Assembly (NCBI RefSeq): GCF_963921235.1
Contig: NC_086108.1
Span: 2,914,001-2,978,000, forward strand
Reading direction: 5' to 3'
DNA from: Mobula hypostoma
Lineage: Eukaryota
DNA length: 64,000 nt
Of this stretch, positions 1,671 to 49,713 are shown piece by piece. The position numbers were made by a program, and so were the translations under genes. Positions within the stretch are counted from its first letter, which is position 1, and every line of letters starts with the position of its first letter. The notes beneath the pieces were generated by a model. The model was not told the DNA's origin. It ran no database searches and worked only from the letters and a program-made list of their open reading frames with translations.

Positions 1671-2870
1671 AGTCAAGTTTATTGTCATTTTGGCCATAAG
1701 CTGCTGGTACAGTACACAACGTTCCTCCAGGACCCTGGTGCTACATGAAACAACACAAAACTACACTAGACTATGTGAGACAGCACAAGGCTACACTAGA
1801 CTACGTAAAACAACACACAAAAACTACACTAGACCGGCACAGGACTATATAAAGTGCACAAAACAGTGCAGGGCAGTACAATAATTAATAAACAAGACAA
1901 CAGGTACAGTAGAGCACAAATTACAATATAATAATAGGTGATGTAGATGTCAGTCTAGACTCTGGGTATTAAGGAGTCTGATGGCTTGGGGGAAGAAACT
2001 GTTACACAGTCTGGTCGTGAGAATCCAAATGCTTCGGTACCTTTTGCCAGATGGCAGGAGGGAGAAGAGTTTGTATGAAGGGTGCGTGGGGTCCTTCACA
2101 GTACTGTTAGCTTTGCGGGTGCAGTGAGTGGTGTAAATGTCTGGAATAGCGGGAAGAGAGACCCCGATGATCTCCTCAGTTGACCTCACTATCCGCTGCA
2201 GGGTCTTGCGATCTGAGATGGTGCAATTCTTGACCAGGCTGTGATGCAGCTGCTCAGGATGCTCTTGATGCATCCTCTGTAGAACGTGGTGGGAACGGGG
2301 TGGGGGGGGGGGTGGTGGGAGATGGATTTTTCTCACCCTTCGCAGGAAGTAGAGACGCTGCTGGGCTTTCTTTGCTATGGAGCTGGTGTTGAGGGACCAG
2401 GTGAGATTCTCCACCAGGTGAACACCAAAAAATTTGGTGCTCTTAACGATCTCAACGGAGAAGCCGTCAATGTTCAGCGGAGGGTGGTCGCTCCGTGTCC
2501 TCCTGAAATCCCTTTTGTTTTGTTCACTTTCAGAGACAGGTTGTTGGCTCTGCACCAGTCCATTAGCCGCTGCACCTCCTCTCTGTATACTGACTCGTCG
2601 TTCTTGCTGATGAGACCCACCACGGCCGTGTCATCGGTGAACTTGATGATGTGGTTTGAGCTGTGTGTTGCAGCACAGTCGTGGGTCAGCAGAGTGAACA
2701 GCAGTGGACTGAGCACACAGCCCTGGGGGGCCCCCGTGCTCAGTGTGATGGTGTTGGAGATGCTGCTCCCGATCCAGACTGACTGAGGTCTCCCAGTCAG
2801 GAAGTCTAGGATCCAGTTGCAGAGGGAGGTGTTCAGGCCCAGCAGTTTCAGCTGTTCAATCAGGTGCTGA
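1670..2870 (-). mobile_element. Rex1/Babar-type LINE, 5'-truncated
   Basis: [13 protein letters not shown]...[39 protein letters not shown]...NSFFPQAIRLLN (ORFs 1950-2555, 2474-2716). Confidence 0.88.
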
Positions 2871-3085
2871 TTGAAATGGCAATAAACTTGACTTGGCTAG
2901 ATAATGAATTTACTTTTTGACATTTATTACTACAAATTCATTAATTAATGATAATCTCTGCTCAAAGTTACCACAGCACATGAGAACCTTCTGAGAAGAT
3001 AATTGTCCATCTGGTCACACACTCTTAAAAAGGTTCACCAGCCCCGCCAAAAACAAATCAAATGAAGCAGAAAAGGAAGTGGTAC

Positions 3086-4089: not shown

Positions 4090-5190
4090 CTCGTCAGTTC
4101 AACAGCATCCTACTCCAGAACCTGGGAATCAACTGCTCCCTCTGTAACTGGATACTGGACTTAACGGCAAAGCCGCAGTCAGTCTACGTGGGCAGCAATG
4201 TCTTTAGTCTCATCATGCTGAGCTGCTGCACTCCCTAAGACTGTGTGCTCAGTCCACTGCTGAGGCACGACTGTGTCGCAGGATCCAGCTCCAACCACGT
4301 CGTCAGGTTTGTAGGTGACACAACATCAGGAACGATGACGAGGCGGAGTAGAGGGAGGAAGTGGAGCGCCTGGTGGATTGGTATGAGAAGAACAACACAG
4401 GCCTGAATCTGAAGAAGAACAAGGAAATCATTGTGGACTTCAGGAAGGTGCAGATGAACCATCCCCCTCTGCGAATACACGGCTCCTCCATACAGAGAAT
4501 CAAGTTCCTGGGAGTTCATGTCACAGATTACCTCACCCGATTCCTTAATATCACCTCCCTGAACAGGAAGACACAGCAGCGTCTCCTCTTCCTGAGGAGA
4601 CTGAGGCAAGCAAGGCTCCCCCACCGCCCCAAACCTAACTGGATTTTACAGGAGGACCATTGAGAGCATCTTGACCAGTTGCATCTCCATCTGGTATGGG
4701 AGCAGCAAAGTATCAGACCAGAAGTCCCTACAAAGGACTGTGAGAACAGCTGAGAGATGGGGGGCATTTATCAGGAGCACTGTGTACACAGGGCCCTTAG
4801 TATTATCAAGAATCCCACCACCCATCCAGCATCTTCTTTGACTTTTTACCCTCAGCAGGAGACTCCGACACATAACGACAAGAGCAGTCAGGATGGGGAA
4901 TAGTTTCTTCTCCCAGGCCATTAGGCTTCTGAACTCCCTGCCGCATTGTTTTCAATGTTTCACTGGTTAATATGTTCCAGTACAATATTTAATATTAATG
5001 TACTTTAGTTTGTTAATTATGTGTGATTCACCTGTAGATTTTACGCTTACGATCACAAGTAATAGAGTGCATGTGTGTTTTGTCTACTACTGTGCCTTAC
5101 ACCCAGGTTTGGAGAAACGTTGTCTCTTTTCTGTATACATTATATGGTTATATATGTTATATACATAAATGTAGTTAAAGGACAATAAAC
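4090..5190 (+). mobile_element. Decayed Rex1/Babar-type LINE
   Basis: VERLVDWYEKNNTGLNLKKNKEIIVDFRK...QQRLLFLRRL; paralogous to 640-1670. Confidence 0.8.
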
Positions 5191-7419: not shown

Positions 7420-8545
7420 TCATGCCATTCATAATCACATCAGGGTGGTGAACACGTGCCCCACGGGGATGTCTACTTAGCCCACTTATGACTGCGTGGC
7501 TACGCACAGCTCCAATGCCATATTGAAGTTCACTGATGACATCATTGTTTAAGCTGAATCCAAGGTGGTGATGAATCACCTTACGGGGGGGATTGAAAAT
7601 CTGGCTGAGTGGTGCCATAACAACAAGCTCTCACTCAATGTCAGCAAGACCAAGGAGCTGATTAACACACGCAAAATGGAGGAGCTCAGCTGGCCAGGCA
7701 GCATCAATGAAAGAGAGTACACAGTTGATGTTTCGGACTGCGACCCTTCAGCAAAGGAGTTGATTATTGACTTCCGGAGGAAGAAACCAGAGGTCTACGA
7801 GCCAGTCCTCATCGGAGGATCAGAGGTGGAGAGGGTCAGCAACTTTGAATTCCCGGGTGTTACTATTTCAGAGAACCTGTCCCGGGCCCAGCAAGCAAGT
7901 GCAATTACGAAGAAAGCACAGCAACGTTTCCGCTTCCTTAGGAGTTTGCAGAGATTTGGCATGACATCTAAAACTTCCACAAACTTCCAGAGATGTGTAG
8001 TGGAGAGTGTATTGACTGGCTGCATCATGGCCTGGAATGGAAACACTAATGCCTTGGATTCAGCCCTGTACATCATTGGTAAAGTGCTCCCAACCATTGA
8101 GCACATCTACACGAAACGGTGTCATAGGAAAGCAGCATCCATCATCAGAGATCCTCAACACCCAGGCCGTGCTCCCTTTTTGCTGCTGCCATCAGCTAGA
8201 AGGTACAACAGCCGCAGAACTCACACCACCAGGTTCAAGAACAGTTACTACCTCACAACCATCAGGTTCTTGAACAAAAGGGGATAACTACACTCACTTG
8301 CCCATTCATTGAAATGTTCCCACAACCAATGATCTCACATTAAGGACTCCTTGTCTCATTATCTCATGTTCTCATTATTTACTGATATTTATTTATATTT
8401 GCATTTGCACAGTTAGTTGTCTTCTGCACTCTGCTTGATCTTTCACTGATCCTGTTATAGTTACTATTCTATAGATTTGCTGAGTATGCCCACAGGAAAA
8501 TGAATCTCAGGGTGGTATATGGTGACATATATGAACTTTGAATAC
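7420..8545 (+). mobile_element. Rex1/Babar-type LINE 3' part with a small Penelope pLTR insert (~7660-7750)
   Basis: ORF 7565-8287: LAEWCHNNKLSLNVSKTKEL...HTTRFKNSYYLTTIRFLN. Confidence 0.82.
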
Positions 8546-9429
8546 TAAAAGGTCTAGACAGGGTTGGCATGAAGAGCCGTTTCCTATAGTAGACAATTCT
8601 AGGACCAGAGGGCACAGCCTCAGAATAGAAGTACATCTCTTTAGAACAGAGATGAGGAAGAATTTCCTTAGCTCGAGGGTAGCTAGTATCCACATCTTCA
8701 AGGAGCGATACCTTAGGAAGGCAGCGTCCATAATTAAGGATCCTCACCACCCAGGACATGCTCTCTTCTCACCGTTACCATCGGGAAAGAGGTACAGAAA
8801 CCTGAGGGCACACACTTAACGATTCAGGAACAGCCTCTTCCCCTCTGCCATCCGATTTCTGAATGGACTTTGAATCCATGAACACTATTTCACTACTTTT
8901 TAAAAAAATTTCCTACTCTTTTGCTCTAATTTAATTATTTAATACAGAATACTTACTGTAATGCAAAGATTTTTCTTTTTTTCTCTCTATTATCATGTAC
9001 TGCATTGTACTGCTGCCACAAAGCTAACAAATTTCACAACACATACCAGTGCTACTAAACCTGATTCTGACGGTAGAATGGAGAAGAGAGAATGACCAGG
9101 TTGGGAGGGGTCATAATCATGGGCTGCTTTCCCGAGACAGGCAAAGAGTGTACATGGGGGTTAATGGAGGTGAGGTTGGTTGGTGTGATGGACTAAGATA
9201 CCGTCACAACTCTCTAATTTATAGCAGACAGGGAAGCGTAGCTGGCATGGGTTTTAATATCTACCTAATGGTCTCACTTTAACTTCTCTTTCAGAAGGCC
9301 ATACATACAGTGCCTATAAGAGGTATTCACCCCCCTCCCCAGAAGTTTTCATGTTTTACAACATTGAATCAGTGTTTTGACACTGATCAACAGAAAAACT
9401 CTTTTGTATCAAAGTGAAAACAAATCATG

Positions 9430-10418
9430 ATTATTCCGCCACCTCCAACGGGATCTCACCACTAAGCACATCTTTCCCTCCCCACCTCTCTGCTGTCCGC
9501 AGGGATCGCTCCCTACATGACTCCCTTGTCCATTCATCCCCCACATCCCTCCCCACTGATCTCCCTCCTGGCACTTATCCATGTAAGCGGAACAAGTGCT
9601 ACACATGCCCTTACACTTCCTCCCTTACCACCATTCAGGGCCCCAAACAGTCCTTCCAGGTGAGGCAACACTTCACCTGTGAGTCAGCTGGGGTGATATA
9701 CTGCATCCAGTGCTCCCGATGTGGCCTTTTATATATTGGTGAGACCCGACGCAGACTGGGAGACTGTTTCGCTGAACACCTACGCTCTGTCCGCCAGAGA
9801 AAGCAGGATCTCCCAGTGGCCACACATTTTAATTCCACATCCCATTCCCATTCTGACATGTCTATCCACGGCCTCCTCTACTGTAAAGATGAAGCCACAC
9901 TCAGGTTGGAGGAACAACACCTTATATTCCGTCTGGGTAGCCTCCAACCTGATGGCATGAACATCGACTTCTCTAACTTCCGCTAATGCCCCACCTCCGC
10001 CTCGTACCCCATCTGTTACTTATTTTTATACACACATTCTTTCTCTCACTCTCCTTTTTCTCCCTCTGTCCCTCTGAATATATCCCTTGCCCATCCTCTG
10101 GATCCACCCCCCCCCCTTGTCTTTCTTCCCGGACCTCCTGTCCCATGGTCCTCTCGTATCCCTTTTGCCTATCACCTGTCCAGCTCTTGGCTCCATCCCT
10201 CCCCCTCCTGTCTTCTCCTATCATTTTGGATCTCCCCCTCCCCCTCCAACTTTCAAATCTCTTACTCACTCTTCCTTCAGTTAGTCCTGACGAAGGGTCT
10301 CGGCCTGAAACGTCGACTGTATCCCTTCCTAGAGATGCTGCCTGGCCTGCTGCGTTCACCAGCAACTTTGATGTGTGTTGCTTGAATTTTCATCATCTGC
10401 AGAATTCCTGTTGTTCAC
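9430..10418 (+). mobile_element. Penelope-like retroelement 3' part: GIY-YIG endonuclease ORF plus pseudo-LTR
   Basis: ORF 9414-9986: PCKRNKCYTC...GVIYCIQCSRCGLLYIGETRRRLGDCFAEHL...LQPDGMN, followed by a C/T-rich tract and a hammerhead-bearing pLTR. Confidence 0.92.
10283..10318 (+). ncRNA. Minimal type I hammerhead ribozyme (PLE-associated)
   Basis: AGTC-CTGACGA-AGG gtctcgg CCT-GAAA-C-GTC-GACT: stem I AGTC/GACT, intact core, GUC cleavage triplet. Confidence 0.85.
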
Positions 10419-10669
10419 GATTATTTATATTTACATTTGTAATTAATTTAGATCAGCTTGCTGAGATCTGCATGCACTTTGACACAAAAGAGGTTTTCTG
10501 TTGATCAGTGTCAAAAAAGCAAGCCAGATTAAATCCACTGAGATTCCACGTTGTAAAACAATAAAACAGTAAGATAGCAATGCTCCCTCAGCTGTGCACT
10601 AGAAGTGTCACCCTGGTCTCTTGCTTGAGGTCACACTCAAACACATAACCTACTGGCTCTAGACGTCTG

Positions 10670-10820
10670 TGTACGGTTTGTGTAACACTATTACAGCTGT
10701 AAGATTGGGGTTCGAGTCCCACAGCTGTCTATAAGGAGTTTGTACATTCTCTACACGACCATGTGGGTTTCCTCTGGGTGCTCTGGTTTCCTCCTACAAT
10801 CCAAAGACGTGTGGGTTAGG
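10670..10820 (+). mobile_element. V-domain tRNA-derived SINE, 5' part; 3' part resumes at ~21792-21919 and 23455-23482
   Basis: Box-B-like GGTTCGAGTCC and V-core GTGGGTTTCCTCTGGGTGCTCTGGTTTCCTCC; an uninterrupted family copy lies at ~25370-25690. Confidence 0.75.
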
Positions 10821-11497
10821 ATGGTGGTGAATATTGGTAGCTCGGGTTGAGTGCTTGCATTTATATAGGCCCCATTCACTTGCCTTGCTCCTGACTGGCT
10901 ACCCCTTCAGTTGATCTTCGAATTCTATTGACTCGCATTTCTTTGGCCCTGAGGAGTTAATAGATCTATTTCGATATGTTTGATAATGAAGTTATCACAA
11001 GAGAAACACGCTTGCACCTGCTTGGTTTCCCAGCTAAAGTGGTGTCCTTCCTGGTCTTCATGTACCAAGATCAGCGACAGTGGTCCATGTCTCCGTACTG
11101 TCTGTTTGTGTTGCGGTAAATGAGATAAGAGTTTACATCCTGTCTGGCTCATGTACTACTTGTTGCAGTCTCCACAGGTGATCCTGTACACCGCATTGCT
11201 TTTGTCAGTTGCCTTCAATGGTACCTCGGCTCTTCAGACAATCCTCCTTAAAGTTCTGGGCCAGGCAAGCACGAGCAGGCACAAGACTACAGAATTCAAA
11301 GATGAAGAGGTAGCCAATCAGGATCAAAGTGAGCAATCGGGGCCTATATAAACATTAACATTCCCAGAGAGTAACACATAACTGCACACTGAGGATGTCT
11401 CCTTGACTGGTGATGAAACATCTGTAAGCTGATTGTCAAGCTCAGTGAACACTGCAATATCAAACACCTCTCCCGAGCTACCAATACTCATCACCAT
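10821..11497. mobile_element. Second-family Penelope remnant with inverted pLTRs: GIY-YIG fragment (-) and pLTR (+) carrying CCAAT/TATA and a degenerate hammerhead (~11384-11426)
   Basis: ORF 10925-11152 (QTGCKLL...QHKQTVRRHGPLSLILVHEDQEGHHFSW) is GIY-YIG-like; 10857-10926 is an inverted copy of ~11290-11352; CTGAGGA...GAAACATC. Confidence 0.75.
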
Positions 11498-14400
11498 CCT
11501 AACCCACCAATACTCACCACCATCCTAACCCACCAGTACTCACCACCATCCTAACCCACCAATACTCATCACCTTCCTAACCCACCAATACTCACCACCA
11601 TCCTAACCCACCAGTACTCACCACCATCCTAACCCACCAATACTCACCACCATCCTAACCCACCAATACTCACCACCATCCTAACCCACCAATACTCACC
11701 ACCATCCTAACCCACCAGTACTCACCATCCTAACCCACCAGTACTCACCACCATCCTAACCCACCAGTACTCACCACCATCCTAACCCACCAATACTCAC
11801 CACCATCCTAACCCACCAGTACTCACCATCCTAACCCACCAGTACTCACCACCATCCTAACCCACCAGTACTCACCACCATCCTAACCCACCAATACTCA
11901 CCACCATCCTAACCCACCAGTACTCACCATCCTAACCCACCAGTACTCACCACCATCCTAACCCACCAATACTCACCACCATCCTAACCCACCAGTACTC
12001 ACCATCCTAACCCACCAGTACTCACCACCATCCTAACCCACCAGTACTCACCACCATCCTAACCCACCAATACTCACCACCATCCTAACCCACCAGTACT
12101 CACCATCCTAACCCACCAGTACTCACCACCATCCTAACCCACCAATACTCACCACCATCCTAACCCACCAGTACTCACCATCCTAACCCACCAGTACTCA
12201 CCACCATCCTAACCCACCAATACTCACCACCATCCTAACCCACCAGTACTCACCATCCTAACCCACCAGTACTCACCACCATCCTAACCCACCAATACTC
12301 ACCACCATCCTAACCCAATACTCACCACCATCCTAACCCACCAGTACTCACCACCATCCTAACCCACCAGTACTCACCACCATCCTAACCCACCAGTACT
12401 CACCACCATCCTAACCCACCAGTACTCACCATCCTAACCCACCAGTACTCACCACCATCCTAACCCACCAATACTCACCACCATCCTAACCCACCAATAC
12501 TCACCACCATCCTAACCCACCAGTACTCACCAGCATCCTAACCCACCAGTACTCACCAGCATCCTAACCCACCAGTACTCACCACCATCCTAACCCACCA
12601 ATACTCACCACCATCCTAACCCACCAGTACTCACCATCCTAACCCACCAGTACTCACCACCATCCTAACCCACCAATACTCACCACCATCCTAACCCACC
12701 AATACTCACCACCATCCTAACCCACCAGTACTCACCATCCTAACCCACCAATACTCACCACCATCCTAACCCAATACTCACCACCATCCTAACCCACCAG
12801 TACTCACCACCATCCTAACCCACCAGTACTCACCAGCATACTAACCCACCAGTACTCACCACCATCCTAACCCACCAGTACTCACCAGCATCCTAACCCA
12901 CCAGTACTCACCACCATCCTAACCCACCAATACTCACCACCATCCTAACCCACCAGTACTCACCACCATCCTAACCCACCAATACTCACCACCATCCTAA
13001 CCCACCAGTACTCACCACCATCCTAACCCACCAATACTCACCACCATCCTAACCCACCAGTACTCACCACCATCCTAACCCACCAGTACTCACCATCCTA
13101 ACCCACCAGTACTCACCACCATCCTAACCCACCAATACTCACCACCATCCTAACCCACCAGTACTCACCACCATCCTAACCCACCAATACTCACCACCAT
13201 CCTAACCCACCAGTACTCACCACCATCCTAACCCACCAGTACTCACCATCATCCTAACCCACCAATACTCACCACCATCCTAACCCACCAGTACTCACCA
13301 CCATCCTAACCCACCAATACTCACCACCATCCTAACCCACCAGTACTCACCACCATCCTAACCCACCAGTACTCACCACCATCCTAACCCACCAATACTC
13401 ACCACCATCCTAACCCACCAGTACTCACCACCATCCTAACCCACCAATACTCACCACCATCCTAACCCACCAGTACTCACCACCATCCTAACCCACCAAT
13501 ACTCACCACCATCCTAACCCACCAGTACTCACCATCCTAACCCACCAGTACTCACCACCATCCTAACCCACCAGTACTCACCACCATCCTAACCCACCAA
13601 TACTCACCACCATCCTAACCCACCAGTACTCACCATCCTAACCCACCAGTACTCACCACCATCCTAACCCACCAGTACTCACCACCATCCTAACCCACCA
13701 GTACTCACCACCATCCTAACCCACCAGTACTCACCATCCTAACCCACCAGTACTCACCATCCTAACCCACCAGTACTCACCACCATCCTAACCCACCAGT
13801 ACTCACCACCATCCTAACCCACCAGTACTCACCACCATCCTAACCCACCAGTACTCACCACCATCCTAACCCACCAGTACTCACCACCATCCTAACCCAC
13901 CAGTACTCACCACCATCCTAACCCACCAGTACTCACCACCATCCTAACCCACCAGTACTCACCACCATCCTAACCCACCAGTACTCACCAGCATCCTAAC
14001 CCACCAGTACTCACCACCATCCTAACCCACCAATACTCACCACCATCCTAACCCACCAGTACTCACCACCATCCTAACCCACCAGTACTCACCATCCTAA
14101 CCCACCAGTACTCATCACCATCCTAACCCACCAGTACTCACCACCATCCTAACCCACCAGTACTCACCACCATCCTAACCCACCAGTACTCACCACCATC
14201 CTAACCCACCAGTACTCACCATCCTAACCCACCAGTACTCACCACCATCCTAACCCACCAGTACTCACCACCATCCTAACCCACCAATACTCACCACCAT
14301 CCTAACCCACCAGTACTCACCATCCTAACCCACCAGTACTCACCATCCTAACCCACCAGTACTCACCACCATCCTAACCCACCAGTACTCACCACCATCC

Positions 14401-17400
14401 TAACCCACCAATACTCACCACCATCCTAACCCACCAGTACTCACCATCCTAACCCACCAGTACTCACCACCATCCTAACCCACCAGTACTCACCACCATC
14501 CTAACCCACCAGTACTCACCATCCTAACCCACCAGTACTCACCACCATCCTAACCCACCAGTACTCACCACCATCCTAACCCACCAGTACTCACCATCCT
14601 AACCCACCAGTACTCACCACCATCCTAACCCACCAGTACTCACCACCATCCTAACCCACCAGTACTCACCACCATCCTAACCCACCAGTACTCACCATCC
14701 TAACCCACCAGTACTCACCATCCTAACCCACCAATACTCACCACCATCCTAACCCACCAATACTCACCACCATCCTAACCCACCAATACTCACCACCATC
14801 CTAACCCAATACTCACCACCATCCTAACCCACCAGTACTCACCACCATCCTAACCCACCAGTACTCACCACCATCCTAACCCACCAATACTCACCACCAT
14901 CCTAACCCACCAGTACTCACCATCCTAACCCACCAGTACTCACCACCATCCTAACCCACCAATACTCACCACCATCCTAACCCACCAGTACTCACCACCA
15001 TCCTAACCCACCAGTACTCACCACCATCCTAACCCACCAGTACTCACCACCATCCTAACCCACCAGTACTCACCACCATCCTAACCCACCAATACTCACC
15101 ACCATCCTAACCCAGCAGTACTCACCACCATCCTAACCCACCAGTACTCACCACCATCCTAACCCACCAGTACTCACCACCATCCTAACCCACCAGTACT
15201 CACCATCCTAACCCACCAATACTCACCACCATCCTAACCCACCAATACTCACCACCATCCTAACCCACCAATACTCACCACCATCCTAACCCACCAGTAC
15301 TCACCACCATCCTAACCCACCAGTACTCACCACCATCCTAACCCACCAATACTCACCACCATCCTAACCCACCAATACTCACCACCATCCTAACCCACCA
15401 GTACTCACCATCCTAACCCACCAGTACTCACCACCATCCTAACCCACCAGTACTCACCACCATCCTAACCCACCAATACTCACCACCATCCTAACCCACC
15501 AGTACTCACCAGCATCCTAACCCACCAGTACTCACCACCATCCTAACCCACCAGTACTCACCACCATCCTAACCCACCAGTACTCACCACCATCCTAACC
15601 CACCAGTACTCACCACCATCCTAACCCACCAGTACTCACCAGCATCCTAACCCACCAGTACTCACCACCATCCTAACCCACCAATACTCACCACCATCCT
15701 AACCCACCAATACTCACCACCATCCTAACCCACCAGTACTCACCACCATCCTAACCCACCACTACTCACCACCATCCTAACCCACCAGTACTCACCACCA
15801 TCCTAACCCACCAGTACTCACCACCATCCTAACCCACCAATACTCACCACCATCCTAACCCACCAGTACTCACCATCCTAACCCACCAGTACTCACCACC
15901 ATCCTAACCCACCAGTACTCACCACCATCCTAACCCACCAATACTCACCACCATCCTAACCCACCAGTACTCACCACCATCCTAACCCACCAGTACTCAC
16001 CACCATCCTAACCCACCAGTACTCACCACCATCCTAACCCACCAGTACTCACCATCCTAACCCACCAATACTCACCACCATCCTAACCCACCAGTACTCA
16101 CCATCCTAACCCACCAGTACTCACCACCATCCTAACCCACCAATACTCACCACCATCCTAACCCACCAGTACTCACCACCATCCTAACCCACCAGTACTC
16201 ACCACCATCCTAACCCACCAGTACTCACCACCATCCTAACCCACCAATACTCACCACCATCCTAACCCACCAGTACTCACCATCCTAACCCACCAATACT
16301 CACCACCATCCTAACCCACCAGTACTCACCATCCTAACCCACCAATACTCACCACCATCCTAACCCACCAGTACTCACCACCATCCTAACCCACCAGTAC
16401 TCACCACCATCCTAACCCACCAGTACTCACCACCATCCTAACCCACCAGTACTCACCACCATCCTAACCCACCAGTACTCACCACCATCCTAACCCACCA
16501 ATACTCACCACCATCCTAACCCACCAGTACTCACCATCCTAACCCACCAATACTCACCACCATCCTAACCCACCAGTACTCACCACCATCCTAACCCACC
16601 AGTACTCACCATCCTAACCCACCAGTACTCACCACCATCCTAACCCACCAATACTCACCACCATCCTAACCCACCAATACTCACCACCATCCTAACCCAC
16701 CAATACTCACCACCATCCTAACCCACCAGTACTCACCATCCTAACCCACCAGTACTCACCACCATCCTAACCCACCAGTACTCACCACCATCCTAACCCA
16801 CCAATACTCACCACCATCCTAACCCACCAGTACTCACCACCATCCTAACCCACCAATACTCACCACCATCCTAACCCACCAATACTCACCACCATCCTAA
16901 CCCACCAATACTCACCACCATCCTAACCCACCAATACTCACCACCATCCTAACCCACCAATACTCACCACCATCCTAACCCACCAGTACTCACCACCATC
17001 CTAACCCACCAGTACTCACCATCCTAACCCACCACCACCACCATCCTAACCCACCAGTACTCACACCTCCTAACCCACCACTCACCACCATCCTAACCCA
17101 CAGTACTCACCACCATCCTAACCCACCAGTACTCACCACCATCCTAACCCACCAATACTCACCACCATCCTAACCCACCAGTACTCACCACCATCCTAAC
17201 CCACCAGTACTCACCACCATCCTAACCCACCAGTACTCACCACCATCCTAACCCACCAGTACTCACCACCATCCTAACCCACCAGTACTCACCACCATCC
17301 TAACCCACCAATACTCACCACCATCCTAACCCACCAGTACTCACCACCATCCTAACCCACCAGTACTCACCATCCTAACCCACCAGTACTCACCACCATC

Positions 17401-20400
17401 CTAACCCACCAGTACTCACCACCATCCTAACCCACCATACTCACCACCATCCTAACCCACCAGTACTCACCACCATCCTAACCCACCAGTACTCACCACC
17501 ATCCTAACCCACCAGTACTCACCATCCTAACCCACCAGTACTCACCACCATCCTAACCCACCAGTACTCACCACCATCCTAACCCACCAGTACTCACCAC
17601 CATCCTAACCCACCAGTACTCACCACCATCCTAACCCACCAGTACTCACCACCATCCTAACCCACCAGTACTCACCACCATCCTAACCCACCAGTACTCA
17701 CCACCATCCTAACCCAATACTCACCACCATCCTAACCCACCAGTACTCACCATCCTAACCCACCAGTACTCACCACCATCCTAACCCACCAGTACTCACC
17801 ATCCTAACCCACCAGTACTCACCACCATCCTAACCCACCAGTACTCACCACCATCCTAACCCACCAGTACTCACCATCCTAACCCACCAGTACTCACCAC
17901 CATCCTAACCCACCAATACTCACCACCATCCTAACCCACCATACTCACCACCATCCTAACCCACCATACTCACCACCATCCTAACCCACCATACTCACCA
18001 CCATCCTAACCCACCAGTACTCACCACCATCCTAACCCACCAGTACTCACCATCCTAACCCACCATACTCACCACCATCCTAACCCACCAGTACTCACCA
18101 CCATCCTAACCCACCAGTACTCACCACCATCCTAACCCACCAATACTCACCACCATCCTAACCCACAGTACTCACCACCATCCTAACCCACCAGTACTCA
18201 CCACCATCCTAACCCACCAGTACTCACCACCATCCTAACCCACCAGTACTCACCACCATCCTAACCCACCAGTACTCACCACCATCCTAACCCACCAGTA
18301 CTCACCACCATCCTAACCCACCAATACTCACCACCATCCTAACCCACCAGTACTACCACCATCCTAACCCACCAGTACTCACCATCCTAACCCACCAGTA
18401 CTCACCATCCTAACCCACCAGTACTCACCACCATCCTAACCCACCAGTACTCACCACCATCCTAACCCACCAATACTCACCACCATCCTAACCCACCAGT
18501 ACTCACCACCATCCTAACCCACCAATACTCACCACCATCCTAACCCACCAATACTCACCACCATCCTAACCCACCAATACTCACCACCATCCTAACCCAC
18601 CAGTACTCACCACCATCCTAACCCACCAGTACTCACCACCATCCTAACCCACCAGTACTACCACCATCCTAACCCACCAATACTCACCACCATCCTAACC
18701 CAGCAGTACTCACCACCATCCTAACCCACCAGTACTCACCACCATCCTAACCCAGCAGTACTCACCACCATCCTAACCCACCAGTACTCACCACCATCCT
18801 AACCCACCAGTACTCACCACCCTCCAAACCCACCAGAACTCACCACCATCCTAACCCACCAATACTCACCACCATCCTAACCCACCAGTACTCACCACCA
18901 TCCTAACCCACCAGTACTCACCACCATCCTAACCCACCAATACTCACCACCATCCTAACCCACCAGTACTCACCACCATCCTAACCCACCAGTACTCACC
19001 ATCCTAACCCACCAGTACTCACCACCATCCTAACCCACCAGTACTCACCACCATCCTAACCCACCAGTACTCACCATCCTAACCCAATACTCACCACCAT
19101 CCTAACCCACCAGTACTCACCATCCTAACCCACCAGTACTCACCACCATCCTAACCCACCAGTACTCACCACCATCCTAACCCACCAGTACTCACCATCC
19201 TAACCCACCAGTACTCACCACCATCCTAACCCACCAATACTCACCACCATCCTAACCCACCAGTACTCACCATCCTAACCCACCAATACTCACCACCATC
19301 CTAACCCACCAATACTCACCACCATCCTAACCCACCAATACTCACCACCATCCTAACCCACCAGTACTCACCACCATCCTAACCCACCAGTACTCACCAC
19401 CATCCTAACCCACCAGTACTCACCACCATCCTAACCCACCAATACTCACCACCATCCTAACCCAGCAGTACTCACCACCATCCTAACCCACCAGTACTCA
19501 CCACCATCCTAACCCACCAATACTCACCACCATCCTAACCCAGCAGTACTCACCACCATCCTAACCCACCAGTACTCACCACCATCCTAACCCACCAGTA
19601 CTCACCACCATCCTAACCCACCAGTACTCACCACTATCCTAACCCACCAGTACTCACCATCCTAACCCACCAGTACTCACCACCATCCTAACCCACCAAT
19701 ACTCACCACCATCCTAACCCACCAGTACTCACCACCATCCTAACCCACCAGTACTCACCATCCTAACCCACCAGTACTCACCACCATCCTAACCCACCAG
19801 TACTCACCACCATCCTAACCCACCAGTACTCACCATCCTAACCCAATACTCACCACCATCCTAACCCACCAGTACTCACCATCCTAACCCACCAGTACTC
19901 ACCATCCTAACCCACCAGTACTCACCACCATCCTAACCCACCAGTACTCACCACCATCCTAACCCACCAATACTCACCACCATCCTAACCCACCAATACT
20001 CACCACCATCCTAACCCACCAGTACTCACCATCCTAACCCACCAATACTCACCACCATCCTAACCCACCAATACTCACCACCATCCTAACCCACCAATAC
20101 TCACCACCATCCTAACCCACCAGTACTCACCACCATCCTAACCCACCAGTACTCACCACCATCCTAACCCACCAGTACTCACCACCATCCTAACCCACCA
20201 ATACTCACCACCATCCTAACCCAGCAGTACTCACCACCATCCTAACCCACCAGTACTCACCACCATCCTAACCCACCAATACTCACCACCATCCTAACCC
20301 AGCAGTACTCACCACCATCCTAACCCACCAGTACTCACCACCATCCTAACCCACCAGTACTCACCACCATCCTAACCCACCAGTACTCACCACTATCCTA

Positions 20401-21756
20401 ACCCACCAGTACTCACCATCCTAACCCACCAGTACTCACCACCATCCTAACCCACCAATACTCACCACCATCCTAACCCACCAGTACTCACCACCATCCT
20501 AACCCACCAGTACTCACCACCATCCTAACCCACCAGTACTCACCACCATCCTAACCCACCAGTACTCACCACCATCCTAACCCACCAGTACTCACCACCA
20601 TCCTAACCCAGCAGTACTCACCACCATCCTAACCCACCAGTACTCACCACCATCCTAACCCACCAGTACTCACCACCATCCTAACCCACCAGTACTCACC
20701 ACCATCCTAACCCACCAGTACTCACCATCCTAACCCACCAGTACTCACCACCATCCTAACCCACCAGTACTCACCACTATCCTAACCCACCAGTACTCAC
20801 CATCCTAACCCACCAGTACTCACCACCATCCTAACCCACCAATACTCACCACCATCCTAACCCACCAGTACTCACCACCATCCTAACCCACCAGTACTCA
20901 CCACCATCCTAACCCACCAGTACTCACCACCATCCTAACCCACCAGTACTCACCACCATCCTAACCCACCAATACTCACCACCATCCTAACCCAGCAGTA
21001 CTCACCACCATCCTAACCCACCAGTACTCACCACCATCCTAACCCACCAATACTCACCACCATCCTAACCCAGCAGTACTCACCACCATCCTAACCCACC
21101 AGTACTCACCACCATCCTAACCCACCAGTACTCACCACCATCCTAACCCACCAGTACTCACCACCATCCTAACCCACCAGTACTCACCATCCTAACCCAC
21201 CAGTACTCACCACCATCCTAACCCACCAGTACTCACCACCATCCTAACCCACCAATACTCACCACCATCCTAACCCACCAGTACTCACCACCATCCTAAC
21301 CCACCAGTACTCACCACCATCCTAACCCACCAATACTCACCACCATCCTAACCCAGCAGTACTCACCATCATCCTAACCCACCAGTACTCACCATCCTAA
21401 CCCAATACTCACCACCATCCTAACCCACCAGTACTCACCATCCTAACCCACCAGTACTCACCACCATCCTAACCCACCAGTACTCACCACCATCCTAACC
21501 CACCAATACTCACCACCATCCTAACCCACCAGTACTCACCACCATCCTAACCCACCAGTACTCACCACCATCCTAACCCACCAATACTCACCATCCTAAC
21601 CCACCAGTACTCACCATCCTAACCCACCAGTACTCACCACCATCCTAACCCACCAATACTCACCACCATCCTAACCCAGCAGTACTCACCATCATCCTAA
21701 CCCACCAGTACTCACCACCATCCTAACCCACCAGTACTCACCACCATCCTAACCCA
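11481..21756. repeat. Minisatellite array, 26-bp unit TACTCACCACCATCCTAACCCACCA(G/A) with 23-bp deletion variants, roughly 400 units
   Basis: Directly visible tandem array; copy number estimated from length divided by unit size. Confidence 0.99.
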
Positions 21757-21919
21757 TATCTCTGGGACTGTAGGAGGAAACCAGAGCACCCGAGTTGGGG
21801 TTAGTGAGTTGTGGGCATGCTATGTTAGTGCGGGAAGCATGGTGACACCTGCATTGTGCCCAGCACAAACCTCGCTGATTTGATTTGATACAAATTATTT
21901 CACTGTAATTTTCAATGTA

Positions 21920-23454
21920 CAGCTGCAAGAAAAAGTTTGTGAACCTTTTCCTCTTACCTCGTCTTCTGCATTTTTTACTCATAAAATGTGGTCTGATCTT
22001 CATCAGAGTCACAATAATAGACAAGCACAATCTGCCTAAACTAATAACATACAAACAATTGTACTTCTCGTCAATACTGAGTCCACCATTTAAACACAGT
22101 CTAGGTTCAAAAAAGTATGGGAACCTCTGGGGTAATGCCTTCCACAAAAGCTATTTGGAGTCAGGCGTTCCAATCAATGAGATGAGATTGGAGGTGTGCG
22201 TTGTTCAGGTGCCCTGCCCTATAACAAGACAAAGTCAGATTACTGAGAGAGCCTGCTCTTCTCAAGAAAGATCTCTTTACATGCACTATGCCTTGATCAA
22301 AACAACTTTCAGAGGACTTTAGAAGAAGAACTGTAGAGATTAATGAAGCTGGAAAAGGCTACAAAGGCATTTCTAAAGACCTTTGTGTTCATCAGTCCAC
22401 AGTAAGAGAAATTGTCTACAAATGGTGAGTACTGTTGCTACTCTCCCTAGGAGTGGGCATCCTGCAAAACTCACACCAAGAGCACAATGTGCAATGCTGA
22501 AGGAGGTGAAAAAGAACCCAGGGGTAACAGCCACAGACCTGTAGAAATCTCTGTTCATGTGTCCACTATAAGAAAATGGTGCTCAAGGAAGGACACCACC
22601 GTTCTCCAGGGAAAAAACACTGCTGCCACCTCAAGTTTGCAAAAGACCACGTGGATGTTCCACGACGCTTCTGGGCCAACGTTCTGTGGACAGATCAGAC
22701 AAAAGTTGAACTTTTCGGCAGAAATGCACACTGCTATGTTTCGAGGGAAAAGGGCACTGCACACCAACACCAAAACCTCATCCCAGCTGTGCAGCATGGT
22801 GGAAGGAGCATCGTGGTTTGGGGCTGCTTTGCTGTCTCAGGGCTTGGACAGCTTGCAGTCATTGAGGGAACAGTGAATTCAAAACTGTATCGAGACATTT
22901 TACAGGAGAGTGTCAGGGTAGCAGTCCGTCACCTGAAGCTTAATAGAAGTTGGATGATACAACATGATCCAAAACACAAGAGTAAATCAACAACAGGTTT
23001 AAAAAGCAGAACATTTGTGTTTTGGAATGGCCACGTCAGAGTCCAGATCTTAGCCCCTGACCTGAAGAGGGCTGTTTATGCAAGATATCCCAGAAACATC
23101 GATGAACTGAAACAGCTTTGTATGGAGGAAAGGTCTTAAATTTCTCCTTGCCGTTGTGCAAGTCTGATCAGCAGCTACAGGAAACATTTGGTGGAGGTTA
23201 TTTGCTGCTAAAGGAGGTTCTACCAGTTATTAAATACAAGGTTTCACGTAGCTTTTCCAGCCTGGACTGTGAATGATTAAACAATGTGTTCAATAAAAAA
23301 ATGGAAAGTACAATTGTCTCTGTGTTACTAGTTTAGGCAGATTGTGTTTGTCTATTATTGTGACTTAGATGAAGATCAGACCTACATTTTATGAATAATT
23401 AATGCAGAAAACCAGGAAATTGCAAAGGGTTCTCTAATCTTTTTCTTGCAACTG
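21920..23454 (+). mobile_element. Tc1-like transposon, full extent, TA TSD, decayed transposase
   Basis: TA|CAGCTGCAAGAAAAAG...CTTTTTCTTGCAACTG|TA; FWANVLWTDQTKVELFG, AVQHGGRSIVVWGCF, QHDPKHKSKST. Confidence 0.92.
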
Positions 23455-23531
23455 TATATATGACAAATAAAGCTAATCTTTACAAAATCCTTAACAAAAG
23501 GTTCTACAGAAAGACGAATGTGCATTTAGAA

Positions 23532-23723
23532 ATGCAAACAACAGGAATTCTGCAGATGCTGGAAATTCAAGCAACACACATAAAAGTTGCTGGTGAACAC
23601 AGCAGGCCAGGCAGCATCTCTCGGATCCTGACGAAGGGTCTCGGCCTGAAACGTCGACTGCACCTCTTCCTAGAGATGCTGCCTGGCCTGCTGCGTTCAC
23701 CAGCAACTTTGATGTGTGTTGCC
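23532..23723. mobile_element. Hairpin Penelope pLTR mini-insertion with hammerhead core in the loop and 13-bp TSD
   Basis: 51-bp inverted arms 23571-23621 and 23672-23722; CTGACGA..GAAACGTC at 23628-23655; TGTGCATTTAGAA at 23519-23531 and 23724-23736. Confidence 0.85.
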
Positions 23724-23771
23724 TGTGCATTTAGAATGTAGCTTTTTCCAATGCATTACAGTCGGATATAC

Positions 23772-24396
23772 ACAGGGTGGCCACTTTATGAGGTATTATA
23801 TCTCCTGTACCTGATAAAGTGGCCACTGAGTGTACGTTCGAGATCTTCTGCTGCTGTAGCCCAACCACTTCAAGTTTTGATGTGTTGCGTGTTCAGAGAT
23901 GCTCCTCTTCACACCAGGGTTGTAACGTGTGGATATTCAAGTTACTGTCAACTTCTTGTCAGCTTGAACCGGTCTGGCCATTCCAAACTGGCCTCTCTCA
24001 TTAACAAGGCTTTTTCAGTGGAACCGTTTTTTGTTTATCACACCATTCCCCGTAAACTCTAGGGCAGGGGTTCCCAACCATTTTTATGCCATGGACCAAC
24101 ACCATTAAGAAAGGAGTCTATGGACCCCAAATTGGGAAACCCTGCTCCAGATACTGTTGAAAATCCCAGGAGATCAGAGTTTTTAAGATACTCAAACCAC
24201 CCCATCTGGCACCAACAAACATTTCATGGTCAAAGTCACTTAGATCATATTTCTTCCCCATTCTGAAGTTTGGTCTGAACAACAACTGAATCTCTTGACC
24301 ATGTCTGCAAGCTTTTATGCATTGAGGTACTGTCACATGATTGGCTGATTAGATATTTGTAATTATGATCAGGTGTACCTAATAAAGTGGTCACTG
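23772..24396. mobile_element. Tc1-derived non-autonomous element (related copies ~29748-30245 and ~40155-40680) with a nested hAT-type MITE at ~24065-24144
   Basis: Ends GTGGCCACTTTAT..AGGTA / TACCTAATAAAGTGG; shared internal sequence among the copies. Confidence 0.7.
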
Positions 24397-24564
24397 GAGC
24401 TGTACTTGCCACAAATGTTCAAGGAGAGAAAGTTGGAAACTGAAGGCTGCTAACTAGTAAAGCCACTCAGCATGGACAGAAAATTTAGAAATTAGCGCAA
24501 GGCAGACAACTGACACAAAACTTTCCAGCAAAACCCAGTGCTTCTCCATAATTCATCAACTTAC

Positions 24565-24610
24565 CTCATGGGCAGATCCTGGATGTTAACAGCATGATCC
24601 ATGAAGTACC
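24565..24610 (-). CDS. SARS2: SARS2 coding exon (~exon 10), 46 bp
   Basis: (G)YFMDHAVNIQDLPM(R); ttttccag| acceptor, |gtaagt donor. Confidence 0.95.
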
Positions 24611-25699
24611 CTGGAAAACAACAGCATCTTTCACTGAGAGAACAGCATGGAGAGTATAACAAACTAGGATTCACCAACTTCAACATATCATCCCTGTATT
24701 CAATACTTTGACTTGGAAAGGCCAATGTGCCAAATGCTCTCTTAAGACTTTAAGATAATGCACGAGAATTAGGCCATTTAACTCATTGAGTCTGCTCCGC
24801 CATTTCATCATGGCTGATCCACTTTCCCTCTCAGCCCCAATCTCCTACCTTCTTCTCATATCCCTCCACGCCCAGACTAATCAAGAATCTCTCAAACTCT
24901 GCGTTAAATATACTCAATGACAGGCTCTCCAGAACAAATTCCACAGAGTCACCACTCTCTGGATAAATGAATTCCTCCTCATCTCTATTCTAAATGGATG
25001 TCCTCTATTCTGAGGCTGAGTCCTCTGGTTTTAGACTCCCCCACCACAGGAAACATCGTCTCCACATCCACTCTATCAAAGTCTTTCAACATTCGATAGG
25101 TTTCTTAATGACTTTATCTACCTGTGCTCTAAGTGACTTTCAAGGAATTATGGATCTGTATACACAGAGACACAAAGGCAAAGGCAGACTGCATATAACT
25201 AAGTATTTGCAGCTGGTCTATCTGGTACTGATGTTCCAAGGAGCCTTTTTCATCATCTTCACCTCAGTGCCTTCAGAATCACCATGCATTTCCCCTCATG
25301 TCTTATCCAGCTTCCCAATAAATGCATCTCCTACCTCCCTCCATCCTTTTCTCCTTCCATCTGCTGGGTGGCATGATAGCATAGAGGCTAGAGTAATGTT
25401 ATCAGAGTGCCAGAGATAGGTGTTCAATTCCTGCTGCTGTCTGTAAGGAGTTTGCACGCTCTCCCCCATGACAATGAGGGTTTCCTCTGAGTGCTCCAGT
25501 TTTGTCCCACAGTCTAAAGACATATGGGTTAGGGTTAGGAAGTTGTAGGCATGTCAAGCTGGAAAAACAGTAATACTTGCAGGCTACCACCAGCACATCC
25601 TTGGGCGCTGCTGGTCATTCATGCAAACAACGTAGTTCACTGTATGTTTCAATGTTTTGATGTACATTTGACAAACAAAGCTAATTCTTAATAGGACCT

Positions 25700-26185
25700 A
25701 AGACCATAAGATTTAGGAGCAGAAGCAGGCCATTCAGCCCATCAAGTCTGCTCTGTCATTCAATCATAGGCTGATCCAATTCTTCCAGTCATCCCCACTC
25801 CCCTGCTTTCACCCCATACCCTTTGATGCCCTGGCTAATCAAGAACCTATTCCTATTTCTGCCTTAAATACACCCAATGACTTGGCCTCCACAGCCGCTC
25901 GTGACAACAAATTCCACAGATTTACCACCCTCTGACTAAAGTAATCTCTCTGCATCTCTGTTCTAAATGGACGTCCTTCAATCCTGAAGTCGTGCCCTCT
26001 TGTCCTACACCTCCCTACCATGGGAAATAACTTTACCATATCTAATACGTTCAGGCCTTTTGACATTCGTAATGTTTCTATAAGAACACGGCCCCCCCCC
26101 CCCCCATTCACCAGGGAATACAGCCCAGGAGGTGCCAGACGTTCCTCATACGGTATCCCTTTCATTCCTGGAATCATTCTCGTCA
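25700..26185 (-). mobile_element. CR1 LINE 3' fragment (another at ~24760-25110)
   Basis: TRMIPGMKGIPYEERL...RTRGHDFRIEGRPFRTEMQRDYFSQRVVNLWN. Confidence 0.85.
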
Positions 26186-26216: not shown

Positions 26217-26242
26217 GAGTGAGTGAGTGAGTGAGTGAGTGA

Positions 26243-26309
<67 letters not shown>
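26217..26309. repeat. Compound microsatellite (GAGT)n(GT)n(GA)n
   Basis: Directly visible. Confidence 0.97.
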
Positions 26310-26310
<1 letters not shown>

Positions 26311-26557
26311 CCATGTACAACCCCAAGATTCATTTTCTTGTGGACATACTCAATAAGTCCAACGGCCATAATAGAATTAAGGAAAGACCGCACCAACTAG
26401 ACACACAGCCAGTGTGCACAAGACAACAAACTGCGCAAATACAAAAGTAAATAATAAATAAGCAAGCAATAAATATCCAGATCACGAGCTCAGAGTTCTT
26501 GAAAGTGAGCCCACGGGTGTGGGAACATTGCAATGATGGGGAAGTGAAGTTGAGGGT

Positions 26558-27113
26558 AGTTATCCAATTTGGTTCAAAAGCTTGATGTCTGCAGGGTAGT
26601 AACTGTTCCTGAACCTGGTGGTGTGGGACCTGAGGCTCATTGTGGTGAGTGAAGTTATCCACACTGGTTCAGGAGCCTGATGGTTGTGGGGTAATAACTG
26701 TTCCTGAACCTGGTGGTGTGGGACCTGAGGCTCGTTGTGGTGAGTGAAGTTATCCACACTGGTTCAGGAGCCTGATGGTTGTGGGGTAATAACTGTTCCT
26801 GAACCTGGTGGTGTGGGACCTGAGGCTCATTGTGGTGAGTGAAGTTATCTACACCGGTTCAGGAGCCTGATGGTTGTCGGGTAATAACTGTTCCTGAACC
26901 TGGTGGTGTGGGACCTGAGGCTCATTGTGGAGAGTGAAGTTATCCACACTGGTTCAGGAGCCTGATGATTGTGGGATAATAACTGTTCCTGAACCTGGTG
27001 GTGTGGGACCTGAGGCTCATTGTGGTGAGTGAAGTTATCCACACTGGTTCAGGAGCCTGATGGTTGTGGGGTAATAACCGTTCCTGAACCTGGTGGTGTG
27101 GGTCATGAGGCTC
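26558..27113 (-). repeat. 95-bp tandem repeat (~5.8 units) within a Rex1-type LINE 3' end (element ~26190-27440)
   Basis: Repeated ...GTTCCTGAACCTGGTGGTGTGGGACCTGAGGCTCATTGTGGTGAGTGAAGTTATCC...; near-identical ORF starts at 26662, 26757 and 27042 (multiples of 95). Confidence 0.92.
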
Positions 27114-42738: not shown

Positions 42739-42995
42739 GTTATCCCCCTCTGGCGCAACAGCCTGATGACTGCAGGGTAATAACTGTTCCTGAACCTGGT
42801 GGTGTGGGACCTGAGGCTCATTGTGGTGAGTGAAGTTATCCACACCGGTTCAGGAGCCTGATGGTTGTGGGGTAATAACTGTTCCTGAACCTGGTGGTGT
42901 GGGACCTGAGGCTCATTGTGGTGAGTGAAGTTATCCACACCGGTTCAGGAGCCTGATGATTGAGGGGTAATAACTGTTCCTGAACCTGGTGGTGT
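42739..42995 (-). repeat. Second locus of the 95-bp Rex1-derived tandem repeat (~2.7 units)
   Basis: Same unit and junction as 26558-27113. Confidence 0.9.
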
Positions 42996-43737
42996 GTCTG
43001 GGAACTGTCAAGACCGGCTCCTCTTTGAACCCTGAACTGTTTGAAGTGATAGACAGGCGATAACCCAGCAGGGAGATAAAAAGGGACAGGTTCGCTAAGG
43101 CAAAACACACACGACACCACGAGGTAACAAGACCCTGGAAGCGGTGCGCCTCCCACAAGTCGGTGGGAGTTTTGCAGGGCTGGTCACGGGACCAAGCCAT
43201 AGACGCACAGGGTGGAAGGGTACGATCGGCGGGAACCTGGTGTGTGTCCGCCCTTGCCTGGGTGCCAGGTTCACTGCAGAGAAACGATCATATCTGAAAA
43301 CGGAGGGGTCACAGTCAGTGACCTCAGAAGACATCACAAAGGGCTCGCCCGAAAGCTGACTGCGAAGAATATCGAAGGTCTGTGTGGAAGCCGTTTGAAT
43401 ATTCATTCACTTTTGCTCTCCCTCTCCTTCCCCCCCCTGTCCACAGCCACGGCAGTGATTACTGTGAACTGAACTGAACTCAATTGAACTGAACTTTGCG
43501 TCACTTTGAAACTGCTCATTTATTCCTAGACGACGATAGAGCTTGATTGATCCTGTTATCCTAATTCTGTGTACATGTGTGTTTATCATTGCTGAACTGT
43601 TGCATTTATTGTCCTTTTGATTAGGGTACTGTATTGCTTATTTCTTTAATAAAACTTTCTTAGTTCCAGTAATCCAGACTCCAACTGAGTGATCCATTTC
43701 TGCTGGTTTGGCAACCCAGTTACAGGGTACGTAACAT
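42996..43737 (+). mobile_element. Probable solo LTR (Gypsy-like)
   Basis: Non-coding; (GAACT)n tract, AATAAA near 43648, terminus GGGTACGTAACA ending in CA; no TSD identified. Confidence 0.55.
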
Positions 43738-45825: not shown

Positions 45826-46083
45826 GAGCCTCAGGTCCCACACCACCAGGTTCAGGAACGGTTATTACCCCACAACCATCAAGCTCCTGAACCAGTATGG
45901 ATAACTTCACTCACCACAATGAGCCTCAGGTCCCACACCACCAGGTTCAGGAACAGTTATTACCCCTCAACCATCAGGCTCTGGAACCGGTGTGGATAAC
46001 TTCACTCACCACAATGAGCCTCAGGTCCCACACCACCAGGTTCAGGAACAGTTATTACCCCTCAACCATCAGGCTCCGGAACA
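45826..46083 (+). repeat. Third locus of the 95-bp Rex1-derived tandem repeat (~2.7 units)
   Basis: Same unit and junction in + orientation. Confidence 0.9.
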
Positions 46084-48341: not shown

Positions 48342-49713
48342 CTGCTGGAGTCAGTTATCAAGGATGTGATAACAGCACATTTGGAAAGCGGTGAAATGAT
48401 CGGACAAAGTCAGCATGGATTTGTGAAAGGAAAATCATGTCTGACGAATCTCATAGAATTTTTTGAGGATGTAACTAGTAGAGTGGATAGGGGAGAACCA
48501 GTGGATGTGGTATATTTGGATTTTCAAAAGGCTTTTGACAAGGTCCCACACAGGAGATTAGTGTGCAAACTTAAAGCACACGGTATTGGGGGTAAGGTAT
48601 TGGTGTGGGTGGAGAATTGGTTAGCAGACAGGAAGCAAAGAGTGGGAATAAACGGGACCTTTTCAGAATGGCAGGCGGTGACTAGTGGGGTACCGCAAGG
48701 CTCAGTGCTGGGACCCCAGTTGTTTACAATATATATTAATGACTTGGATGAGGGAATTAAATGCAGCATCTCCAAGTTTGCGGATGACACGAAGCTGGGT
48801 GGCAGTGTTAGCAGTGAGGAGGATGCTAAGAGGATGCAGGGTGACTTGGATAGGTTGGGAGAGTGGGCAAACTCATGGCAGATGCAATTTAATGTGGATA
48901 AATGTGAAGTTATCCACTTTGGTGGCAAAAATAGGAAAACAGATTATTATCTGAATGGTGGCCGATTAGGAAAAGGGGAGGAGCAACGAGACCTGGGTGT
49001 CATTATACACCAGTCATTGAAAGTGGGCATGCAGGTACAGCAGGCGGTGAAAAAGGCGAACGGTATGCTGGCATTTATAGCGAGAGGATTCGAGTACAGG
49101 AGCAGGGAGGTACTACTGCAGTTGTACAAGGCCTTGGTGCGACCACACCTGGAGTATTGTGTGCAGTTTTGGTCCCCTAATCTGAGGAAAGACATCTTTG
49201 CCATAGAGGGAGTACAAAGAAGGTTCACCAGATTGATTCCTGGGATGGCAGGTCTTTCATATGAAGAAAGACTGGATGAACTGGGCTTGTACTCGTTGGA
49301 ATTTAGAAGATTGAGGGGGGATCTGATTGAAACGTATAAGATCCTAAAGGGATTGGACAGGCTAGATGCAGGAAGATTGTTCCCGATGTTGGGGAGGTCT
49401 AGAACGAGGGGTCACAGTTTGAGGATAGAGGGGAAGCCTTTTAGGACCGAGATGAGGAAAAACTTCTTCACACAGAGAGTGGTGAATCTGTGGAATTCTC
49501 TGCCACAGGAAACTGTTGAGGCCAGTTCATTGGCTATATTTAAGAGGGAGTTAGATATGGCCCTTGTGGCTACGGGGGTCAGGGGGTATGGAGGGAAGGC
49601 TGGGGCAGGGTTCTGAGTTGGATGATCAGCCATGATCATAATAAATGGCGGTGCAGGCTCGAAGGGCCGAATGGCCTACTCCTGCACCTATTTTCTATGT
49701 TTCTATGTTTCTA
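48342..49713 (+). mobile_element. Young 5'-truncated CR1 LINE; open RT-containing ORF2 C-terminus (48366-49616, 416 aa)
   Basis: QHGFVKGKSCLTNL, YLDFQKAFDKVPH, GVPQGSVLGP, KFADDTKL; no stops; (TTCTATGT)n 3' tail. Confidence 0.96.

Follow-up and report, generated by a model that had tools for sequence, protein, structure and literature searches.

The stretch of DNA analysed here (64,000 nucleotides of the forward strand of Mobula hypostoma contig NC_086108.1, referred to below as the window) carries a single tandem array of period 26 at 11480-21756, reported by Tandem Repeats Finder as 404 copies with 94% matches. The array lies against one arm of an inverted Penelope-like element (PLE) which itself interrupts a dispersed repeat of the short interspersed element (SINE) type, and its unit consists of the end of an optional tail of the element together with a few bases of the adjoining flank. 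The positions of these features are collected in Table 1. The evidence set out below makes it likely that the array arose by ordinary DNA-level duplication at the tail/flank junction of an old PLE insertion and was later expanded by slippage or unequal exchange.

Table 1 Features of the interrupted repeat, the inverted element and the array (positions counted from the first letter of the window)
Feature	Position	Strand	Basis or remarks
5' part of dispersed SINE-like repeat, insertion target	10658..10815	+	BLAST to intact copy 25370-25680; alignment with 14 other copies
TTAGG, read both as part of native GGGTTAGG in the repeat and, on the reverse strand, as the CCTAA that ends the element	10816..10820	.	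putatively owned by either
Left arm, 5'-truncated Penelope-like copy pointing left	10816..11255	-	tail ~10816-10853; putative endonuclease-region ORF remnant 10925-11155
Right arm, shorter inverted copy of the 3' end pointing right	11291..11502	+	inverted repeats I1, I2, I4
26-bp minisatellite, 403 units	11480..21755	+	variants ACCAGTACT... (195), ACCAATACT... (98), 23-nt form (62)
Inverted copy of left flank (10772-10815, last 44 nt)	21753..21794	-	abuts CCTAA of the last unit
3' part of interrupted SINE-like repeat, resumes with TTGGGGTTAGTGAG	21795..21935	+	end approximate, from intact copy length

When cut at TAACCC the array falls into 22 variants of the unit, the commonest of which reads ACCAGTACTCACCACCATCCTAACCC, the second carrying ...CCAATACT... 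and a 23-nt form being short of one CAC. A 14-mer from the unit occurs 393 times against a chance expectation of 0.08, and the plus strand of the array contains 5081 C compared with 307 G; this is a strongly strand-asymmetric (C-rich/G-rich) minisatellite within a transposon-rich stretch. Its internal structure includes an exact block of 514 bp (20 units) that is present twice, at 19233-19746 and 19992-20505, and is the largest of the multi-unit duplications, as well as a local unit pattern ABC that occurs 16 times versus 7.3 in shuffled arrays (maximum 17 in 1000 shuffles), and both point to DNA-level growth through slippage or unequal exchange. An ancestral-like A variant is kept in the unit closest to the element.

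The assembly from which the window comes (3.48 Gb) was searched. Allowing up to 2 mismatches the 26-mer gave 330 forward and 4 reverse matches genome-wide, with 330/330 of the forward matches falling inside the array and one of the reverse matches corresponding to the inverted junction at 10813; among the reverse matches listed outside the window, two are single ends of the Penelope-like family on other contigs. Patterns spanning two successive tails occur 234 and 254 times, every one of them inside the array, and a genome search with a pattern specific for the ancestral ATTCACC tandem form gave one unrelated match only. The original prediction had allowed that the 26-mer might prove to be a satellite dispersed at loci with neither PLE nor SINE flanks, which these results contradict, and had proposed looking for further family ends followed by tandem units of element end plus local target. 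Among at least 403 family tails in the genome no tandemised tail was found besides the window array.

The sequence on the element side of the array (10840-11480) is a dispersed repeat with 1372 first-look candidates and 90 scored matches, the long ones being 70-75% identical. An open reading frame (ORF) of the family (L041:342-968, minus strand) matches 22 proteins with a best E of 1.6e-65; 15/22 carry RVT_1 (PF00078), a domain confirmed in the homologues P0003 and P0002, and one bears the name GIY-YIG domain protein. These protein matches identify the family ORF as a reverse transcriptase of PLE type, which is an assignment to type and not to a position within the clade. In the window itself the left arm contains a minus-strand ORF remnant that can be aligned with the 832-aa RVT_1 protein P0003 over residues 725-801 of the latter (YVGQTGRKL...; E 6e-16), and it follows that the coding strand of this arm runs leftward and that the outer ends of the insertion are 3' ends. 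A candidate endonuclease region in a family ORF, assessed against the C-terminal GIY-YIG type with two cysteines between GIY and YIG (CCHH), reads ...VTYRITCRDCNKNYTGQT.... On the strength of the protein matches and the structural features described below we regard the flanking element as Penelope-like, in agreement with its original assignment, although no hammerhead was found.

The element is arranged head-to-head, with an inverted 5'-truncated copy and both tails pointing outward, as had been predicted. Copies elsewhere in the genome match 10849-11255 of the left arm at 70-75%, and the optional tail of the right arm occupies ~11465-11502 and ends in ...CATCACCATCCTAA. The two arms share 98 matches with 10 mismatches (90.7% identity over aligned columns). 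The left arm is without ~110 nt that are found in the right arm and in family copies, the gap lying between ...GCAAGCACTC and TCAACC... (10850-10860 versus 11352-11465). The single inverted copy of the array-side junction that the original prediction had noted in the left arm could be verified, with 10811-10857 being 85% complementary to 11461-11507 over 47 nt.

Equally well founded was the observation of an imperfect inverted duplicate of the left flank beyond the array. The identity of this 42-nt copy to the left flank is 92.9%, with 39 columns matching, 3 mismatched and 9 gapped, and the two have in common a derived CCTACA where the majority of repeat copies have CCCACA. On the top strand one meets, in turn, flank, antisense element, sense element and antisense flank. 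Since the identities of the arms (90.7%) and of the flank copy (92.9%) are so close, the arms and the flank copy are of similar age and are far closer mutually than the arms are to family members (70-75%).

Where the element ends determines how the unit is to be read. An alignment of both element ends of the window with 11 ends of other copies has the family sequence running 22 nt beyond the earlier boundary (after ...GAGCTA), through CCAATATTCACCACCATCCTAA, before it diverges; the original prediction had let the element end after CCCGAGCTA and had taken GTGGGTTAGG as purely host, which the continuation of the family sequence speaks against. The terminal 28-mer, GAGCTACCAATATTCACCACCATCCTAA, has 193 + 210 = 403 matches in the genome at <=3 mismatches, 33 of them exact, as compared with 0 for its reversed control, and one exact match is the left end of the insertion in the window (10816-10843). 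Directly after CCTAA the sequences of the other exact copies differ at once in 31 rows (29 distinct ends), the next base being A in 16, G in 12, T in 2 and C in 1. Across 19 further loci, 13 ends of the element finish at positions equivalent to 11462-11472 of the window, and 11 run on for ~35-37 nt as far as CCTAA (about 11496-11522). The family thus has an optional outer tail of 30-40 bp, and both an optional "tail" of 30-40 bp and inverted 5'-truncated copies have been described for published Penelope-like elements (PMC11167929, PMC8557442, PMC3846280). The two states of the tail also agree with the two neighbouring internal start sites that are reported for a purified PLE enzyme. A second head-to-head insertion (L050/L051, G000:C5:213589167-213590364) carries the 28-mer without a mismatch at each of its outer ends, the distance between them being 1170 bp.

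Because the family sequence ends in CCTAA and the flanks diverge directly after it, 22-23 of the 26 nt of the unit can be assigned from sequence comparison to the end of the optional 3' tail, which they match with 1-2 substitutions, leaving solely CCC(A) to the local flank. The unit is accordingly made up of the distal two-thirds of the tail and the first flank bases. The original prediction was right in that the unit spans the junction of element end and local flank, but its division into 16 nt of element and 10 nt of target gives way to one of 22-23 and 3-4 nt. It had also named, as a finding that would speak against it, a unit lying wholly within the PLE consensus: this holds for CCTAA, which belongs to the family sequence, and does not hold for the locus-specific CCC(A), which is missing from the family sequence and present in every unit.

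The repeat into which the element is inserted has 2661 first-look candidates in the genome, and since ARAGORN found no tRNA-like gene or head in 10500-26000 'SINE' is used as a label only. The intact copy near 25525 reads GGGTTAGGGTTAGG, as originally noted, and the native target, GGGTTAGGGTTAG, is the majority sequence of 14 further copies, three of which have it exactly. The right side of the repeat restarts with TTGGG at 21795-21799, where its resumption in forward orientation after the array had already been noted. On the left, TTAGG had been taken as the last host sequence; it is indeed part of the repeat but belongs equally to the element, and the left junction may represent either a 5-nt microhomology or a target duplication of 0-5 nt.

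The vertebrate C-strand telomere repeat has 6 nt, and CCTAA accounts for 5 of these. As CCTAA ends the element and CCC(A) comes from the flank, the telomere-like CCTAACCC in the unit is a chance composite of tail and flank. A bias of insertion towards targets resembling GGGTTAG, which had been suggested, is not supported: among 119 exact ATTCACCACCATCCTAA ends CCC comes next in 1/119, this being the window locus itself, where ~2 are expected by chance.

Contigs from public runs of other organism codes bridge several joints of the insertion: the repeat/element junction is crossed by X10 record 4 (10778-10916, 1 difference), the arm-to-arm joint by X4 record 30 (11129-11409, 10 differences) and the right tail with the first unit by X4 record 32 (11390-11509, 2 differences). 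It follows that both the insertion and, at a minimum, the first unit are older than the splits from those organisms. The summed contig depth over 11484-11521 is ~13156 in X2, which has the organism label of the window, against single-copy contigs near 16, and ~244 in X4, the run of a related organism, against single-copy contigs near 50, a weak hint that the array became large only in the lineage of the window. X2 has no contig over the arm-to-arm joint (11256-11293), which X4 covers, and such a hole proves nothing; X17 (organism D) has no locus-specific bridging contig and carries no evidential weight.

These data suggest the following course of events. An old Penelope-like element would have inserted into the SINE-like repeat at its native GGGTTAGG as a head-to-head pair of two 5'-truncated copies with their 3' ends and optional ~37-nt tails outward, and the right tail would have been joined to the 42-nt inverted copy of the left flank through fold-back (self-primed) synthesis off the cDNA into the target, the order of flank, antisense, sense and antisense flank being the one expected if a single fold-back synthesis had proceeded without a break over the cDNA and across 42 nt of target. 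A later duplication at the DNA level would then have doubled the 26-bp segment at the right junction, comprising the last 22-23 nt of the tail and CCC(A) of the inverted flank, and replication slippage and unequal exchange would have raised it to about 400 units, probably for the most part in the lineage of the window. A start from short flanking direct repeats of 5-10 bp, as in the Haber-Louis model, was considered and rejected: the near-repeat CCAATAT/CCCATAT lies at an offset of 22 and not 26, and the actual boundaries have only 1 nt in common.

Several observations weigh against this course of events. Only one nucleotide (A) is common to the two boundaries of the unit and the first duplication left no diagnostic mark, and slippage by a polymerase at integration would look the same as a later DNA event. 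The sole other two-tailed head-to-head pair in 53 other loci (L050/L051) has no long inverted flank, its outward flanks sharing GCCRCT only, so that the inverted flank in the window may be a one-off or a later rearrangement, the sample being too small to judge. The Pfam search of the element's ORF fragments gave no GIY-YIG match and nothing else of relevance, and Rfam found no hammerhead ribozyme in 9000-12000 of the window at E<=1; none was found either in 17 exact-tail loci at E<=0.1. Minimal PLE hammerheads may escape the Rfam models in both searches, and the sole Rfam matches were to chance-level or simple-repeat miRNA models. Finally the depth contrast between organisms is one between contigs of one run each, and depth is unsuited to ranking.

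The inverted flank and the head-to-head arms could instead have come from a rearrangement after insertion, for instance by a template switch in replication or by fold-back at an inverted repeat, with the array itself originating as proposed above. The lack of a long inverted flank at the other sampled pair would then mean that the flank copy is no regular product of integration, and the similar divergence of flank and arms fits an early post-insertion event as well. We nevertheless consider this unlikely, since inverted copies placed head-to-head are regularly seen in PLE insertions and have been proposed to result from self-priming (PMC3846280, PMC8557442), and since one continuous fold-back synthesis accounts for the arms and the flank copy together. 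Another mechanism, put forward in the original prediction, is that the reverse transcriptase of the element produced the first units during integration, through telomerase-like reiteration or stuttering at the junction, and that these were amplified later. The array does begin exactly at an outward 3' end, the start site of reverse transcription, and no sequence feature dates the very first duplication. PLE reverse transcriptases are moreover relatives of telomerase (PMC8557442), and a purified PLE enzyme is reported to initiate reverse transcription internally, at two neighbouring sites, and to extend both DNA strands in vitro (PMC11167929). A telomerase-like product would be expected to have a unit wholly specified by the template and to recur at other insertions, and the window array has neither property. 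Reiteration of this kind is very unlikely because every unit contains CCC(A), which lies outside the templated end of the family and follows no exact tail end but that of the window locus, because there is no second case, the other tail ends of the family not being tandemised and the left tail of the same insertion being a single unit, and because the structure of the array is that of DNA-level growth, with multi-unit duplications and a homogeneity of 94% that is far above that of an array of the age of the arms in the absence of DNA-level turnover. The contigs of the related organism, which suggest few units, add a weak argument in the same direction.

A combination of this mechanism with the fold-back model, in which self-primed synthesis by the PLE reverse transcriptase left its own cDNA for the target, giving the inverted arms and the 42-nt flank copy, and in which the same enzyme, stuttering at the tail/flank boundary, laid down the first tandem units, we likewise hold to be very improbable; were it true, a minisatellite would owe its first units to a relative of telomerase that repeatedly copied a composite template of DNA and RNA. 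That the whole 26-mer belongs to the element or to a dispersed satellite, or that the length of the array is an artefact of assembly, is scarcely credible. Assembly is difficult where short units form a long array, and the length given here is that of the assembly, but an independent run that bears the window's organism label has a summed contig depth that is hundreds-fold over the first units, and the confinement of all forward 26-mer matches and of the tandem-tail patterns to the array, together with the two single element ends among the reverse matches listed outside it, argues against a dispersed unit. Duplication of the tail/flank junction at the DNA level, followed by local expansion, is thus the account that we retain.

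The surroundings of the array are rich in transposons. Outside the array there are 210 ORFs of >=70 aa, and among the 77 of >=100 aa the only domains found were RVT_1 (3) and ALKBH8_N (4). The ORF fragments with one or both of these domains lie at 1953-2630(-), 2477-2896(-), 4352-4660(+), 7553-8284(+), 48342-49613(+) and 55999-56469(-), and are the remains of retrotransposons that have no relation to the Penelope-like family. The intron of SARS2 in which the array had been supposed to lie could not be verified, as the ORFs gave transposon domains only and a search with the PF00587 profile (core of class-II aminoacyl-tRNA synthetases) gave 6 matches, none in the window. The best PF00587 match on the contig (G000:C50:82233455-82234090, E 4.5e-26) lies ~79 Mb away in a stop-free frame of 492 aa. 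A 95-bp unit forms three short arrays at 26551-27113 (5.9 copies), 42760-42996 (2.5 copies) and, in the opposite orientation, 45826-46096 (2.9 copies), which are probably an internal tandem repeat of a dispersed element, and a (GT)n microsatellite of ~21 repeats is found at 26219-26301.

Composed as it is of head-to-tail units of transposon origin within the 10-100 bp range, the array is a transposon-derived minisatellite and so belongs to a class that is already known. It has been reported that 23% of human minisatellites/satellites are transposon-derived (PMC3389668), and Alu-, B1- and LTR-derived (MaLR-LTR) arrays are listed in a review (PMC6947457). As in such cases a segment of a retroelement was duplicated in place and expanded locally into a single-locus array that is strand-asymmetric and whose copy number is apparently lineage-specific; should the contrast in copy number between related organisms be confirmed, the locus would offer a hypervariable marker. 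The window array differs from these in drawing its sequence from the optional 3' tail of a Penelope-like donor and in having 3-4 nt of flank in its unit, and unlike the model of Haber and Louis, as outlined in the review (PMC6947457), its unit has no short flanking direct repeats, with only 1 nt shared. At ~400 units (10 kb) it is also large for a minisatellite. A catfish satellite has been described as 'connected to Penelope elements' (PMC11955569), and a word search of a limited body of literature for Penelope-derived satellites and minisatellites found no minisatellite formed at a tail/flank junction.

The element resembles insertions of the Penelope/Poseidon type in the relationship of its reverse transcriptase, its putative endonuclease-region remnant, its heavy 5' truncation, its head-to-head inverted 5'-truncated copy and its optional outer tail of 30-40 bp, and departs from them in having no Rfam hammerhead and one tandemised tail. 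The 42-nt inverted copy of the target flank on one tail has no counterpart in the published PLE descriptions that were compared, and being of the same age as the arms it provides a footprint that bears on how head-to-head insertions come about, a process for which self-priming is so far a proposal. With telomerase and with Athena and Coprina, the telomere-attached PLEs that lack an endonuclease, it shares a related reverse transcriptase lineage and the CCTAA in the element end. Unlike Athena and Coprina the window element comes from a family that probably bears an endonuclease and is located at 2.9 Mb of its contig; tail and flank together make up the telomere-like octamer, and there is no target bias. 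Against this background the precision with which the unit maps onto the optional tail of a PLE makes the locus a clean and datable case of a tail/flank junction that has grown into a 10-kb array.

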